Shown in pieces: positions 3,509 to 56,964 of a stretch of DNA of 64,000 nucleotides. The notes below the pieces were generated by a model. It searched no databases. It saw only the letters and a list, made by a program, of their open reading frames with translations, and was not told the origin of the DNA. The translations under genes were made by a program, and so were the position numbers. The DNA comes from a virus, in the IMG/VR virus record IMGVR_UViG_3300001598_000053, positions 1,029 through 65,028 of that record, one strand, 5' to 3'. Numbering within the stretch: the stretch's first letter is position 1; every line of letters starts with the position of its first letter.

Positions 3509-4366
3509 ATGATGGAGGTAAGCATAGTGAAACCAATTATAAAATGGGTCGGAGGCAAAACGCAATTGCTTCCTGCCTTACGAAAATACTTTAATAAAGA
3601 AGATATGCGCGGACACACCCTCTATGAGCCTTTCATCGGAGGTGGAGCATTGACTCTTGACTTAGCACATGAGAGCACAGTCCTCAACGATTTGAACTCA
3701 GAGCTGATAAACATGTATGAAGTAGTCAGAGATTATCCAGATGAATTGATTCTGTTGTTAAAGCAATACAGAGATATGCACAGTGAGACTCTATATTATC
3801 ACTTGCGCAACCTAGACAGAGAAGAATCATTCAAAGATTTCTCAAAAGTCAGCAAAGCGGCAAGAACAATCTACCTCAACAAGACTTGCTTCAATGGATT
3901 ATACAGAGTAAATAGCAAAGGATACTTTAATTCCCCTATGGGAAAGACAGCGTCTGGAAAAACGCCTGAGATAGTCAATGAAGACCAAATTAAGGAGATT
4001 TCAAAATACCTTAAGACTGTGAGAATCGAAAACACCTCGTTTTCGGCTGCAGTCAAAGATGCAAAACAAGGCGATTTCGTCTTCTTCGACCCTCCGTATG
4101 ACCAAGATGAGGATATCAACTCAACTGGATTCGTAGGATATCAGAAGAACGGATGGACTAGAGACGATACCATCGCCCTTAAGAACCTTTGTGATGAACT
4201 TACTTCTAAAGGAGTTCATGTCGTACTGACGAATAACGACACTTCATATGTAAGAGAGCTTTTTGCTGATTATGAAATAGAAGCAGTAGACGTCAGACGT
4301 AACATAAACAGAAACGGTTCTGCGAGAAAAGGCAGAGAAGTCATCATTAGCAATAAGCTAAATTAA
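3509..4366 (+). CDS. dam: DNA adenine methyltransferase (Dam family)
   Basis: Motif I EPFIGGGA and motif IV FFDPPYD; probable true start GTG at 3526 (SD GGAGG 8 nt upstream). Confidence 0.85.
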   Translation: MMEVSIVKPIIKWVGGKTQLLPALRKYFNKEDMRGHTLYEPFIGGGALTLDLAHESTVLNDLNSELINMYEVVRDYPDELILLLKQYRDMHSETLYYHLRNLDREESFKDFSKVSKAARTIYLNKTCFNGLYRVNSKGYFNSPMGKTASGKTPEIVNEDQIKEISKYLKTVRIENTSFSAAVKDAKQGDFVFFDPPYDQDEDINSTGFVGYQKNGWTRDDTIALKNLCDELTSKGVHVVLTNNDTSYVRELFADYEIEAVDVRRNINRNGSARKGREVIISNKLN

Positions 4367-8760: not shown

Positions 8761-8953
8761 GTTTAACGACTTAGATCTTTTTTTTATTCCACTGTGCCGA
8801 TTTACCCTATTATATATAATAATGATACACGTGCGCGTGTACGGGAGGTACTGCGGTACTAGAAAATATTTTTAAATTTTTTTATCAAAACAGTTTGCAA
8901 ACCATTTCTTATATGATATAATATTCTTGTAAGGTTAAGGAGGAATATAACCT

Positions 8954-9727
8954 ATGAAAAAGATTTTTGCAAAACAATTAGACTGTGAGTGCTTTGATTA
9001 TCGCGCTTATTATGACGAAGATATGGCCGTGGAAGATCAAGTATACATCGGAGGCAACAGAAACTTCTGTGGATTCAACGAAGACCTTCGCGCTAGTGTA
9101 GTTAAAGCATTTGAAGAATGTAGATATGATCTTGAGACAGTTGACAGTGATGTTGATGACGGAGAGATGACTGACGAAGAAGGAAACGCTCAAAGATTAG
9201 ATTTATGTAAGAATTACTTTGAAGGATTGAAAGGCAAAGAAGTAAAATTTTCTGATGAACAATACTTTAAGCTTGGAAGTCTAAGCCGCGAATTCTGGAC
9301 TTGCCGCTCATCTGATGAAAATGATTTAGTCTGTGAAGCACTTTCTATACTTCATAATAAAGAATTCGTGAACGGAACGATCAGAGGATGCTGTCAAGGC
9401 GACTGGAACAAGTATATTTGTCCTAAAGAAAGACAAGACTTCGTGACTGGATATGTCAAAGCGGTTTACTTTGCTACCGGTACTGAATTCCAAATCACTT
9501 GTGAACCTATCGAAGTTGATAGTGACGATGTAGATGAGATCGAGTCTAAATTCGAGGAGGCAGAAGTCTACTGTGATTATACTGACTTATGGAAAGACGA
9601 CGATATTAAAGAATGGATCGCAAAGAATTCTTCTTACGGCGACAAGCAATATACTAAAGACGATGTCGCTTTGATCACAATCAAAAGTTCGAGAATGGTG
9701 AAAGTCAATTCTTATGAATTAAAATAA
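8954..9727 (+). CDS. Cys-rich hypothetical protein
   Basis: ORF; SD AAGGAGG; first gene after early promoter 8895-8930. Confidence 0.6.
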   Translation: MKKIFAKQLDCECFDYRAYYDEDMAVEDQVYIGGNRNFCGFNEDLRASVVKAFEECRYDLETVDSDVDDGEMTDEEGNAQRLDLCKNYFEGLKGKEVKFSDEQYFKLGSLSREFWTCRSSDENDLVCEALSILHNKEFVNGTIRGCCQGDWNKYICPKERQDFVTGYVKAVYFATGTEFQITCEPIEVDSDDVDEIESKFEEAEVYCDYTDLWKDDDIKEWIAKNSSYGDKQYTKDDVALITIKSSRMVKVNSYELK

Positions 9728-19891: not shown

Positions 19892-20191
19892 ATGAAAAAA
19901 ATTAATTACATCGAATACAAACATTCAGTCGCACATGCCATCGAACCAAAGATGAAAGCACTCTGCTACAATGCTTTCATCGCTAAGAAGCCAATCAATT
20001 ACTGTTTTGCAATCGTCAAGAACGCAATCAACTCCAACGATGTCCGCTTCACTGAAAAAGAGCAATTAATCTACGATAACTTCAAAACAATCTCTGAACC
20101 TGCTCACTTGTATGCTTATGCGAAAGCAATCATCAGCAAAGCAGCTGAGACAGAAGTTTATGTTGATGATGACGGCGAATTAATCGCTTAG
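19892..20191 (+). CDS. hypothetical early protein
   Basis: promoter unit; SD AAGGAGG. Confidence 0.6.
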   Translation: MKKINYIEYKHSVAHAIEPKMKALCYNAFIAKKPINYCFAIVKNAINSNDVRFTEKEQLIYDNFKTISEPAHLYAYAKAIISKAAETEVYVDDDGELIA

Positions 20192-21049
20192 CATAGACAA
20201 TGGTTGGTAAACCAAGTCAAGCCGAGGGTTATGAGAAACTAACTTAGAGGCATTGCTAAAGCTTCCCTCCTTTCTGAATTAAATAATCTTACAGTGAGCA
20301 CAACGTAAAAGCGCTAACATACAAAGGCGGAACCGCACCTAGTCGACGAGGTATAGAAAGCGGGGCAACGCAACACCGGAACCTAAAGCTGACGATTGTC
20401 GCAACAAGTCGTTCGAACCGACGCTAATCATGGAATAGGCGAGTTGTGCCTGGTGTAAGGTTATTTAGTTAACCTGTTAACATTTTTCTTTACCTCCCTT
20501 TCTGAAAAGACCTCAACTTCAAGTTGGGGCCTTTTTATTTTCCATTGGAACTACAAACCAAAATCCTTCGCTGATCTTCGGTTCTGTCAGGATTACAATT
20601 CTAGTAAATTTTTACTGAGAAGAACAGAATCCAATGTACATGCACGATGTGCACGATCTGTACATTAACCCGCATGTGTAGTACATTTTTTCTAAATTTC
20701 TAATTGTGGATCAAAATTTAATATCTCACACTGTATTATATACTGTGAGTGCTCGAAGAGAGTATCCACCAGACGATACACTTTTCTCCTTTCGTCTGAA
20801 GAATCACAGGAACTCCTTTATTGCCGTTTGACTACGGCTGTAGACTCATGTTGAGTCTAATGACTCAAGTTTTCCTCCTTGCAAAAATACACTTAATAGA
20901 TTGTTTTTCATAATAACTGTGATTCAATTTGGGCATGACCATTTGGTTGTGCCTTTTTCTATTTTCTAAAATAATTTTATCAAAAGGATTTACAAAGGTA
21001 AGATTATATGATATAATATATATATGTAAAGATAAAGGAGATTACTAAT

Positions 21050-22865: not shown

Positions 22866-22900
22866 AAGGGGTTTGCAAAAAACCCTTTTTATGTTATAAT
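22866..22900 (+). promoter_or_regulatory. fused terminator-promoter unit: GGGTTT-GCAAA-AAACCC + T5, -35 TTTGCA, -10 TGTTATAAT
   Basis: same architecture; identical copy at 23725-23757. Confidence 0.7.
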
Positions 22901-22929
22901 AAATATGTAAATAAATGGAGGAAACAAAA

Positions 22930-23124
22930 ATGAAAGACGAAATCAAAACTTGTTGCATCTGCGGATGTCAATTCAGAGGTTGGGGAAACAACCCAGACGG
23001 AGCAATGTGGTTAGACCCAGAGACCAAAGAACCAGTTGTTGGAGAATTCAACACAGAAGACAGATGCTGCGACGACTGCAATTCGAGATATGTAATTCCA
23101 GGCAGAATGTTCCAATTGAGTTAA
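22930..23124 (+). CDS. small zinc-ribbon protein (CCICGC ... CCDDCN)
   Basis: SD GGAGG 9 nt before ATG 22930; Cys pairs. Confidence 0.5.
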   Translation: MKDEIKTCCICGCQFRGWGNNPDGAMWLDPETKEPVVGEFNTEDRCCDDCNSRYVIPGRMFQLS

Positions 23125-23163
23125 CATCGAAAAGAACAAGAATAATAATCAATCATAGAACTC

Positions 23164-23205
23164 GTCTAGAGGCTCATAGAAGTCATCTAGACGAGTTTTT
23201 TATTA
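23164..23205 (+). terminator. intrinsic terminator TCGTCTAGA(GG..)TCTAGACGA + T6
   Basis: perfect 9-bp stem then TTTTTT, ends early gene block before ORF-free island. Confidence 0.65.
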
Positions 23206-23784
23206 TTCCTTGATAATTTATATTAAAGTCTCTTAAAAGCCGTTAGAACGCGAATTTTGGCATTGTGTATTTATATGAACACAAATGCCTTTATGTAGGG
23301 AAATCCAAATGTCTTACAGCACATTTTCCAACAATACGATCGTGGGAAATTTAGGAGGATTCATATTCTGCTTTTACTAAATTTCTGCGAAACGGTTGCG
23401 GATACAGGTCGGTCATCCCAGAGTTCTTACCGTGCACTGTACATGTAGGGAAATCCAGATGTATTTACTTTACTAGAATTCAGAGGGGCAGATTTTTGGT
23501 GGTCTAGGGTATAACCAAAAATCTGCCTTGGTCCTAGTAAAAATTTACTAGAGATGTTAATATGATCCTTCCCCTAAGGGGAAGGATCATATTAAAGTTT
23601 TGATTCGGGTAGACAGTGACAAACGGTTGAGAATTTTACTGAGAAGAATTCATGTACACCATACAGATCCCCACATGTGACTGTCTTGGGTTAGATGAAA
23701 AAAATAAAAAAGTTTTAATTTAGGGGTTTGCAAAAAACCCTTTTTATGTTATAATATACTTGTAAAGATAAAGGAGAATAAAAT

Positions 23785-25916: not shown

Positions 25917-25999
25917 AAAAACAAAACAAGACCTTCTTGATTGAAGGTCTTTTTATTTTCTGCTTCGGCAGTTTTATCCAACTGTGCCTAGGGGAGGAT

Positions 26000-26365
26000 T
26001 CGCATGATTGAATTTAGTAAATAGTAAATTTTCGTTGAGCGCACAGATCTGTGGAAGGATTCAGGATGGGGCTGTACAGAAGATGAAGTAAATTTAGTAA
26101 AGCCTGTCAGAACGATCTGAATCTGGGAAACGGTTCTGACAGACCCTGCTGAACCGCAAATTTAGTAAACTGTAATCCTGACCAAAGCCGGATACTGTAC
26201 ATGAGACTGTACAGGTCTGTCGCATGATGCTTCACAGAATTTAGTAAACTCAGCATCAACCTGGAAAGGAGTCATGGAAAATTTGGGATGGGCCTAGGCT
26301 GATCGATCCATCTTGGATTTCTAGTAAACGCTTACTATGATGACATCCAAGAATCCTCCTCCCCG
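26000..26365 (+). repeat. array of five ~75-bp units each ending in AATTTAGTAAA, bracketed by an 11-nt long-range inverted repeat (GGGGAGGATTC ... GAATCCTCCTCCCC)
   Basis: core motif at 26019, 26092, 26159, 26238, 26315 (degenerate); internal hairpins CTGTCAGAAC/GTTCTGACAG, CTGTACA/TGTACAG. Confidence 0.6.
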
Positions 26366-26491
26366 GATCTGAACAAAGGAGGAGTTCTAAAAAATATTTT
26401 AATTATTTTCATAAAAGGTATTTGCAGAACTTATAATATATGTTATAATAATATTGTAAGAAGGATAAAGAAAGAATAGAGGTAAACGAAT

Positions 26492-56041: not shown

Positions 56042-56160
56042 CATTCTCGCATTCACTCGTTGCCTATTGCCTAGGTGGAAATCGCACTAGCAAAGTGCCA
56101 TCTCGGACAAGAGTTGATTACTCCATACAAGTAATTGAGTGAATCTTGAATATAAATGAA

Positions 56161-56203
56161 AACACACTCTCGACCATATAGGTCATATGAGAGTGTGTTT
56201 TCT
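56161..56203 (+). terminator. intrinsic terminator: 11-bp perfect stem AACACACTCTC / GAGAGTGTGTT + T-tract
   Basis: follows tail fibre gene stop (56041). Confidence 0.7.
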
Positions 56204-56268: not shown

Positions 56269-56964
56269 TTATTTTAACATATCGATGAGCATTGTTACAA
56301 TAGTAGCCGTTTCTTGCCGGTCGAAATTGCAAGAGCCTTGGAAGAACATAGTCAATAAATCACGATACTCCACAGATTGTTTATACGATTGAATGATTAG
56401 CTTATTATGTCGGTCATTGACATACAATTGTAATCTATTAGGGTCGAAGAGACCATCGTACTTTTCAATCCATACTCGATAGTCCTCTTTGTGCATCTTG
56501 TCCCAATAAATCCAAAATGACAGGGTGATGTCATTGTAGCCTAGTCGATACCAAAGATGAGTTTGTCTTGGTTTCTCGATGATTTCATATCTGTCTTTTG
56601 TGAGTACCTTGTTGTTGTAGTGATACTCTGCATATGTTGTGCCTTGTGTCCACCGATAGAGAGGTGTTTCTTCTTCCAGTTTTAGCAACTCTTCTTTGGT
56701 TGGGCATTTCTCGACATACAAGCCTCGATTTCTGTCTATGTATGACTTCTCAAACTCTGGAATGTTGAAATAGGTGATGTATGGCATAAACAAGTCGAGA
56801 TTATTGGACAAGAGGAACAACTTGTAATCCTTCCTAGTTCGTGTGATCGTTGAGACCAACTCCAAGAGATGATGTGGTTCATCCTTGAGGTAGTGCTTAT
56901 TCGAACCTCTCATCAAGCCGACTTCATCATAGATGATGTATTGGTCTCGAACGTAAAAAAGCAA
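56269..56964 (-). CDS. hypothetical protein (only sizeable minus-strand ORF); Walker-B-like IIYDEVG, possible truncated P-loop ATPase
   Basis: ORF bounded by bidirectional hairpin terminators; no Walker A found upstream (in-frame stop 8 codons before start). Confidence 0.4.
   Translation of the reverse strand: MLFYVRDQYIIYDEVGLMRGSNKHYLKDEPHHLLELVSTITRTRKDYKLFLLSNNLDLFMPYITYFNIPEFEKSYIDRNRGLYVEKCPTKEELLKLEEETPLYRWTQGTTYAEYHYNNKVLTKDRYEIIEKPRQTHLWYRLGYNDITLSFWIYWDKMHKEDYRVWIEKYDGLFDPNRLQLYVNDRHNKLIIQSYKQSVEYRDLLTMFFQGSCNFDRQETATIVTMLIDMLK

Follow-up and report, generated by a model that had tools for sequence, protein, structure and literature searches.

ORF-free islands in the early region of an uncultured phage: possible arrays of DNA sites for a phage-specific protein

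Background

What could a compact phage genome gain from segments of its early region that contain no gene? The question is raised by a 64-kb stretch of viral DNA (IMG/VR record IMGVR_UViG_3300001598_000053, positions 1,029 to 65,028), here called the window, in which three stretches lack any + strand open reading frame (ORF) of at least 50 amino acids: island 1 (20192-21049), island 2 (23214-23784), on which this work centers, and island 3 (25917-26491). Together they make up about 3% of the window. A preliminary description of island 2, made from the sequence alone, had correctly recognized it as ORF-free and had suggested binding sites, origin or partition-like, for one phage-encoded or host protein, or else a family of small RNAs.

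The islands lie in a typical early region (19.8-26.5 kb) populated by small orphan genes, each with its own near-consensus promoter (TTTACA/TTTGCA-17-TGnTATAAT) and often with an intrinsic terminator. Their G+C content (0.37-0.46) is coding-like, whereas ordinary intergenic DNA in this region has a G+C content of 0.2-0.3. To our knowledge, non-coding DNA is seldom retained by large virulent phages, and the few cases known, such as the repeat regions of T5 and the end repeats of T7, are mechanistically not understood.

Our preferred reading, to which we give a probability of roughly 40%, is that island 2, with islands 1 and 3, is not a gene and constitutes a cis-acting array of sites on double-stranded DNA, read by a phage-specific protein. 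The proposal is built on motif statistics, on the anatomy and paralogy of the islands, on the recurrence of such islands in a family of related phages and on the absence of coding or RNA-family signal; protein binding, the identity of the protein and the role of the complex are what we infer from them.

Results

A motif family common to three islands

Motif analysis across the three islands, as the preliminary description had proposed, revealed one non-random motif family and showed that the islands are interrelated. The heptamer TAGTAAA/TTTACTA occurs 11 times in the islands, against 0.35 expected and a maximum of 2 in 300 dinucleotide shuffles of the same DNA, a frequency above background even though the bare TAGTAAA is about twofold above expectation in coding DNA too. 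The longer word TYTAGTAAA has 17 copies in the window (2.7 expected), 9 of which fall within 2.1 kb of islands. The underlying motif, which we call M1, is best written (G)AAWTYTAGTAAA; it is asymmetric, spans 12-16 bp and can stand as a half-site, in adjacent direct pairs (26015/26022) or in dyads of either arrangement. Half-sites keep one orientation per island, and each island has one dyad.

Other words accompany M1. The hexamer TGTACA occurs 7 times in the islands, against 0.43 expected in dinucleotide shuffles; set against the 12 copies in the other 62 kb of the window, these 7 copies in 1.7 kb correspond to a roughly 21-fold higher density. GGAGGATTC/GGGAAATCC are also common to the islands. 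GATC is found 12 times in the 1.7 kb of islands (7/kb) versus 2.6/kb elsewhere, a 2.7-fold difference (P ~0.003 by a Poisson estimate), and the window encodes a D12-class N6-adenine DNA methyltransferase at 3509-4363 (Pfam E = 1.3e-57). In islands 1 and 2, the general class of short palindromes lacking a spacer shows no enrichment. As a separate observation, GTAC (0.96/kb) and CCGG (0.42/kb) are strongly under-represented outside the islands and occur at about the expected level within them.

Anatomy of island 2

Within and around island 2, the motif copies are interspersed with long perfect inverted repeats, as follows.

23159-23201, + strand: intrinsic terminator of the upstream 64-amino-acid zinc-ribbon gene, with 12-bp perfect arms AACTCGTCTAGA/TCTAGACGAGTT and then a T-run; left boundary of the island.
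23259-23289: hairpin GGCATTGTGT..ACACAAATGCC, directly 5' of the first copy of the 20-mer and found in the minimum-free-energy fold of each strand.
23293-23312, + strand: direct repeat copy 1, ATGTAGGGAAATCCAAATGT, which includes the word GGAAATCC.
23373-23384, - strand: M1 half-site AAATTTAGTAAA, from the motif scan.
23443-23462, + strand: direct repeat copy 2, ATGTAGGGAAATCCAGATGT, with TGTACA ahead of it (23438-23443).
23469-23481, - strand: M1 half-site GAATTCTAGTAAA, from the motif scan.
23487-23527: perfect hairpin GGCAGATTTTTGG, with 14-bp arms (23487-23500 and 23514-23527) and a 13-nt loop containing CTAGG.
23533-23553: M1 dyad CCTAGTAAAAATTTACTAGAG, two half-sites tail to tail.
23557-23595: perfect palindrome with 19-bp arms (23557-23575 and 23577-23595), core ATGATCCTTCCCC..GGGGAAGGATCAT and two GATC sites.
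23618-23686, + strand: segment paralogous to island 1 (20606-20680; local alignment z = 3.3), with AAACGGTT, TTTTACTGAGAAGAA, TGTACA, ACAGATC and CACATGTG.
23722-23756, + strand: right boundary, a terminator-like hairpin with a -35 hexamer in its loop and an extended -10 for the next gene; a perfect copy of 22867-22901.

The palindrome at 23557-23595, followed on the + strand by a weak T-run, and the hairpin at 23487-23527 are the longest and second-longest perfect inverted repeats in the 64-kb window. The 20-mer ATGTAGGGAAATCCARATGT occurs twice in the island, where 0.02 copies are expected by chance. All elements listed in the preliminary description were thus found, with small errors of coordinate: the second copy of the direct repeat had been placed at 23448; the hairpin had been given 13-bp arms at 23483-23523; and the palindrome, described for 23561-23589, is larger. 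The inverted TAGTAAA/TTTACTA pair noted there corresponds to the M1 dyad.

Islands 1 and 3 are weak paralogues of island 2

Local alignment against shuffles gave z values of 3.3-4.3 among the three islands, which we therefore regard as weak paralogues. They share a module in three parts, consisting of a hairpin with CTAGG in its loop, a dyad TYCTAGTAAA-N3-TTTACTAG, and a second hairpin whose arms start with ATCCTYC and finish with GGARGAT. Islands 2 and 3 have the module on the + strand, island 1 in inverted form. Around the dyad, island 2 (23536-23557) and island 1 (20595-20616) are 91% identical in inverted orientation. The exact 15-mer TTTTACTGAGAAGAA is common to 23634-23648 in island 2 and 20610-20624 in island 1, a match that had been reported earlier but placed at 20590, and three of the five copies of AAACGGTT in the window are in islands. 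The island 3 array is homologous to 23483-23595 of island 2 (z = 3.9). The counterparts in islands 1 and 3 are:

20597-20624, + strand: island 1 counterpart AATTCTAGTAAATTTTTACTGAGAAGAA, an M1 dyad preceded by an AATCCT..AGGATT hairpin (20560-20596).
26010-26340, + strand: island 3 array, with M1 at 26010, 26022, 26090, 26158, 26237 and 26317 and a spacing of 68-80 nt.

These six copies bear out the earlier remark that the TAGTAAA-type core recurs at 25.9-26.5 kb. The final one is a dyad (26320-26340) followed by a AATCCTCCTCC..GGAGGAG hairpin.

The first part of island 1, island 1a (20192-20540), is a 350-nt untranslated segment with up to 51% G+C that runs from the stop codon of the ORF at 19892-20191 to a strong terminator. 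It holds two boxes CCYCCYTTTCTGAA (20266 and 20493), the minus strand of which reads as a very strong Shine-Dalgarno sequence with 4-codon mini-ORFs (MLTG, MPLS). Mini-ORFs with a strong Shine-Dalgarno sequence (MIEFSK, MGLYRR, MLTG) were considered as a principle common to the islands and rejected; they occur in islands 1 and 3 and are absent from island 2.

Analogous islands in related phages

A set of 88 related loci, designated by L-numbers, was assembled for comparison. In blastn searches, no island showed nucleotide similarity to any of these loci, even where the flanking proteins are 55-70% identical, and island 2 had no match in cultured phages either. At least nine relatives nevertheless have analogous ORF-free islands, each with a terminator ahead of it and the next early promoter behind it, that carry runs of core variants. 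The synteny comparison called for in the preliminary description yielded analogous islands but no alignable island DNA. The common core across relatives is YTAGTRRA; each genome keeps to a single variant of it, which changes from one genome to another:

L212: TTTTAGTGGRATTT (TTTTAGTGGAATTT), 4 copies about 125 nt apart; by its zinc-ribbon protein (70% identity) the closest of the relatives read.
L143: YACTAGAA, 8 copies in one orientation.
L151: TCTACTAG, 16 copies over four islands, in both orientations.
L124: TTCTAGACATYTATGA (TTCTAGACAT), 3 copies.
L204: TTTTAGTG, 3 copies.
L130, L134, L139 and L188: sites of the TAGTGAA / TTAGTGG type, dyads among them.

Word statistics were compiled from 18 kb of islands in 28 loci. 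Relative to the rest of the loci, the words most enriched in islands are GATC-containing hexamers, GGATTC, CCGGAT, CTAGTG and GTACAG, with GATC itself at 5.8/kb versus 2.3/kb (2.5-fold) across the family. The words are strand-symmetric, as seen for CTAGT (25/26), GGATTC (17/13) and GTACA (26/21), and the base composition of the family's islands is without coding-strand skew. Compared with L124, the genes surrounding the island stand in a shuffled order. The anchor gene is 8.5-11 kb away from a contig end in 5 of 9 large related contigs, no more than a hint that the region might lie in a terminal repeat.

Several candidates collected in this comparison were set aside. The apparently homologous island pair of L172 and L183 is really a gene with TGA read as Trp, and the pair from L178 and L180 represents another type of region. 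A scan of the viral collection for ATTTAGTAAA pairs returned chiefly chance matches in AT-rich genomes, and the TTTACTAAAATTTAGTAAA palindromes of an IMG/VR contig from the same pattern scan (L033) are probably unrelated operators.

Some of these regions are of note in themselves. With TGA as Trp, L172 3406-3800 and L183 3190-3560 (77% identical) encode a membrane protein of about 130 codons with an HxLDDYxLQ motif, and some phages of the wider group seem to use genetic code 4. L130 (7850-8030) and L143 (5810-6010) carry a second conserved non-coding element, not seen in the window, in which G/C-rich runs (AAAAAATTTTCG..CGCGCG) are combined with GAGTAGCAAA/GTGTAGCAA, present two or three times immediately ahead of an early promoter. 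The L033 region (8790-9000, - strand), on a contig apparently unrelated to the others, is intergenic and operator-like, with three copies of TTTACTAAAATTTAGTAAA and a related ATTACTAAAATTAGTAAT.

The window and its phage

The window has a G+C content of 37%, and almost all of its ORFs are on the + strand. Its genes include those for a helicase, NrdD/NrdG, the D12 adenine methyltransferase, a dCMP deaminase, a thymidine kinase, a ligase and structural proteins with Ig domains; the tRNA genes form two clusters and are confined to 59.6-63.9 kb. The closest protein matches in cultured phages, which come from phages of Bacillus, Clostridium and Streptococcus, reach just 34-38% identity, and the relatives derive from rumen-type metagenomes and rumen metagenome-assembled genomes. 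The window belongs to a large novel phage that probably has a Firmicutes host and comes from rumen-type metagenomes; contigs identical to it were found in run SRR1221442. One related contig was binned with a 'Bacilli bacterium' genome assembled from sheep rumen. The sole clear minus-strand gene of the window, at 56269-56964, encodes a product that matches phi29 gp16, the DNA-encapsidation ATPase, over its C-terminal two thirds (PF05894, E = 1.7e-17, profile positions 113-323 of 331). Immediately upstream of this gene, the + strand carries a perfect 14-bp hairpin (56158-56202).

The flanks of island 2

The zinc-ribbon gene and island 2 are together bracketed by a 35-nt perfect direct repeat, AGGGGTTTGCAAAAAACCCTTTTTATGTTATAATA (22867-22901 and 23722-23756), that lies within 85-nt repeats of 80% identity. 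The repeat is made up of a terminator-like hairpin, the loop of which contains a -35 hexamer, and an extended -10 behind it, and the independent Logan assembly of the same sample (run SRR1221442) breaks exactly at both copies. In T4-type phages, promoter-early stem-loop (PeSL) cassettes have been described (PMC2839356, PMC4122927). The flanks of island 2 agree with such cassettes, since a composite of stem-loop and early promoter stands on both sides of a segment that comprises one small variable gene and island 2, within an early region of shuffled order, a reading that fits the gene order being shuffled relative to L124. The likeness accounts for the boundaries of the island but not for its content, as the words M1, TGTACA and GGATTC are found in no PeSL.

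A zinc-ribbon gene adjoins an island not only in the window (22930-23121) but also in L212, L130, L139, L151 and L143. Its protein has many homologues, whereas the downstream 117-amino-acid protein has only two; the gene had no match in 50,697 phage records.

Discussion

A model of DNA sites for a phage-specific protein

If the islands are DNA sites, a phage-encoded, genome-specific DNA-binding protein would bind half-sites in monomeric and dyads in dimeric form, and a nucleoprotein complex would be assembled over each island. Such a complex might act on the DNA of the early region by controlling its entry or end processing, by starting replication or packaging, or by silencing neighboring early promoters. 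The interspersed perfect palindromes would be prone to cruciform formation, and the GATC sites of the islands are putative targets of the phage's own D12 methyltransferase. The combination of half-sites, direct pairs and dyads amounts to a typical operator or iteron grammar, and a core that is uniform within genomes and variable between them is expected if the site co-evolves with its own binding protein. Because its gene adjoins islands in the window and in five relatives, the zinc-ribbon protein is a candidate binding partner as judged from gene neighborhood.

Parallels among known systems

The closest architectural parallel is found in phage T5, the left terminal repeat of which contains three untranslated repeat regions (629, 188 and about 1200 bp) among the pre-early genes. 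These regions have inverted repeats in common and are dense in direct repeats and palindromes; they carry paired DnaA boxes, and their order and sequence are well conserved among T5-like phages. A cis action is presumed for them, with a function that is hypothetical in T5 as well, and one of the three has been put forward as the injection stop signal (10.1101/866236). The window likewise has several ORF-free regions among small early genes (20.2-26.5 kb), with inverted repeats common to the regions, and by analogy its islands may work in a comparable way. We do not file them as members of the T5 type, because neither DnaA boxes nor sequence conservation is found: the box TTWTNCACA has 8 matches in the window against 8.8 expected and none in the islands, and among the relatives island sequence and order are unconserved, only the vocabulary of words recurring.

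A second parallel is offered by the DNA ends of T7, where arrays of the short repeat CCTAAAG, spaced at 10-30 nt, and a palindrome flank the terminal repeat. These too are ORF-free and upstream of early promoters, with a 7-8-nt motif in one orientation at irregular spacing and a perfect GC-rich palindrome. They differ in standing at the physical genome ends, whereas the window has three islands with a 50-130 nt spacing. Arrays of the iteron or centromere type (P1 incC/incA, F sopC, the lambda cosB R sites) and the Dam-dependent GATC clusters of P1 pac and P1 oriR resemble the islands in having many direct and inverted copies of a replicon-specific site read by the replicon's own protein, and in combining GATC clusters with a Dam-class enzyme. 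The site in the window is shorter, far more widely spaced and dispersed over at least three islands, and no cognate protein gene was recognized.

Several observations weigh against a protein-binding role. The neighboring early proteins have no recognizable DNA-binding domain; the zinc-ribbon protein itself gives a confident structural model (predicted local distance difference test score, pLDDT, 90.5) but no sequence or fold match in the PDB. Binding-site clusters and origins of phages are usually AT-rich, and the coding-like G+C of the islands would suit a structured RNA. The 50-130 nt spacing of the sites, without helical phasing, is unusual for iterons or operators. Terminator-like hairpins are found both inside islands 1 and 2 and at their ends (20511-20540, 20931-20960, 23557-23605 and 23722-23750, all on the + strand), which implies some transcription across them. 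Finally, the DnaA boxes that are a hallmark of T5 are absent from the islands, and the T5 regions are well conserved among relatives while the islands are not.

DNA sites or RNA

The alternative that fares best, possible but in our view doubtful, is that the islands encode one or more non-coding RNAs, strings of hairpins split by the conserved AU-rich single-stranded motif UUUAGUAAA or its complement, which could serve as a multi-unit precursor that is processed or as a sponge for an RNA-binding protein or nuclease. In its favor are the coding-like G+C of the islands and their look of independent units, each lying between a terminator and the next promoter. Repeat units of 68-125 nt, in one orientation per island, are found in the window, L212, L143 and L204. 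The palindrome with its weak T-run (23557-23605) and the hairpin with its T-run (23722-23750) could end + strand transcripts. Island 2 also folds well past its shuffles on the + strand (z = -4.75), but the opposite strand does so too (z = -6.66), and island 3 scores -2.45 and -2.41 on its two strands; island 1a reaches just -1.2. The fold signal of island 2 is due to its perfect Watson-Crick palindromes, which fold equally well on either strand. Counted over all islands, 20 stems of the + strand and 25 of the - strand require G-U pairs, a distribution without strand preference.

No sigma-A-type promoter opens any island, in a phage with near-consensus early promoters, and none scoring at least 10/12 lies within the islands on either strand. 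Rfam 15 gave no match in the window at the gathering threshold or at E values up to 10, and none at the gathering threshold in nine relatives. M1 and the shared module occur in both orientations, and the lack of alignable homologues means that no covariation can be demonstrated. The earlier suggestion of a small RNA family has therefore gained no positive support from promoters, Rfam matches or strand-specific G-U pairing. The strand-symmetric words, the Watson-Crick palindromes, the lack of a G-U strand signal and the use of the module in both orientations favor recognition of double-stranded DNA, and to that extent the evidence leans towards the binding sites for one protein that had been suggested, although no binder was recognized nearby.

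Nor did a protein-coding origin emerge. A decayed gene was rejected when six-frame tblastn searches returned only similarities of the promoter regions, and an alternative genetic code was rejected for the window when no convincing ORF appeared with TGA, TAG or TAA read as sense. The SPO1-type late promoter box CGTTAGA is at chance level. We also set aside, and do not use as support, presumed resemblances to the half-site of the B. subtilis RTP Ter, the TrpR operator, the TACTA sites of Rok, the Cas12a repeat and the CTA/TTA start sites of Firmicutes DnaG.

Other explanations

Unlikely, in our estimate, is the explanation that the islands are selfish or by-product DNA without phage function, whether repeats resembling miniature inverted-repeat transposable elements or scars left by the shuffling of cassettes in a hyperplastic early region, with gene conversion keeping them uniform in each genome. 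It would suit the very fast turnover of island DNA beside conserved flanking proteins, the paralogy of islands in either orientation within one genome, the PeSL-like bracketing of the zinc-ribbon gene and island 2, and the shuffled gene order; some motif pairs, such as TTCTAGTGAAG..CTTCACTAGAA in L130, even resemble short terminal inverted repeats. What it does not readily explain is that a compact phage maintains so much DNA free of ORFs, that analogous arrays with the same core persist in very divergent relatives, and that the islands consistently run from a terminator to a promoter. Neither a transposase nor a homing-endonuclease gene adjoins the islands, and no target-site duplications were seen.

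Quite improbable is a replication origin of the iteron type, in which the downstream AT-rich promoter region would unwind and neighboring transcription would activate. Direct repeats do stand beside a stretch of 20% G+C and a strong promoter (26390-26460), and the clustering of GATC in a phage with a Dam-class enzyme recalls Dam-dependent origins such as E. coli oriC and P1 oriR. The proposal of an origin or partition-like element nevertheless found little to sustain it: there are three islands within 6 kb, and L130 and L151 have at least four; the repeats are 12 nt long and spaced at 50-130 nt (68-96 nt in the window), as opposed to iterons of 17-22 bp in helical phase; the islands contain no DnaA boxes; no initiator domain or ParB-like gene was recognizable in the neighbors; and the cumulative GC skew does not turn at islands 2 or 3.

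It is very improbable that the motif copies are decoys mimicking a host repeat of the CRISPR (clustered regularly interspaced short palindromic repeats) type, as an RNA anti-CRISPR or solitary repeat units, or mimicking a type III antitoxin RNA: island 3, L212 and L143 do have directional arrays of a short conserved sequence with variable spacers of similar length, and we see a loose likeness to portions of certain Firmicutes repeats and to ToxI (CTAGAAATTC), but the conserved core has 12-15 nt as opposed to 23-55 nt in CRISPR repeats and whole repeats of 34-45 nt in the ToxI type, the motif occurs in both orientations and in dyads, and no Rfam CRISPR-DR match was found in the islands at E values up to 10.

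Conclusions

A bolder suggestion, which we put forward as speculative and rather unlikely, is that the islands belong to an undescribed class of phage-specific arrays in a large group of uncultured rumen phages, each genome with its own variant of YTAGTRRA in runs of a single orientation. Such arrays might be staged signals for DNA entry or end processing in Gram-positive hosts, a counterpart of the T5 injection stop signal, or multi-unit RNAs cut or bound at the motif that act as anti-defense decoys.

The islands described here would represent a second, unrelated phage group that keeps several non-coding islands, with a clear grammar of sites that varies by genome. This variation from genome to genome offers a specificity series supplied by nature, of use in the search for the binding partner and in probing the role of these elements. 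If the islands do control DNA entry, end processing or the switch from early to middle expression, they would provide a new handle on how rumen phages take over their hosts.

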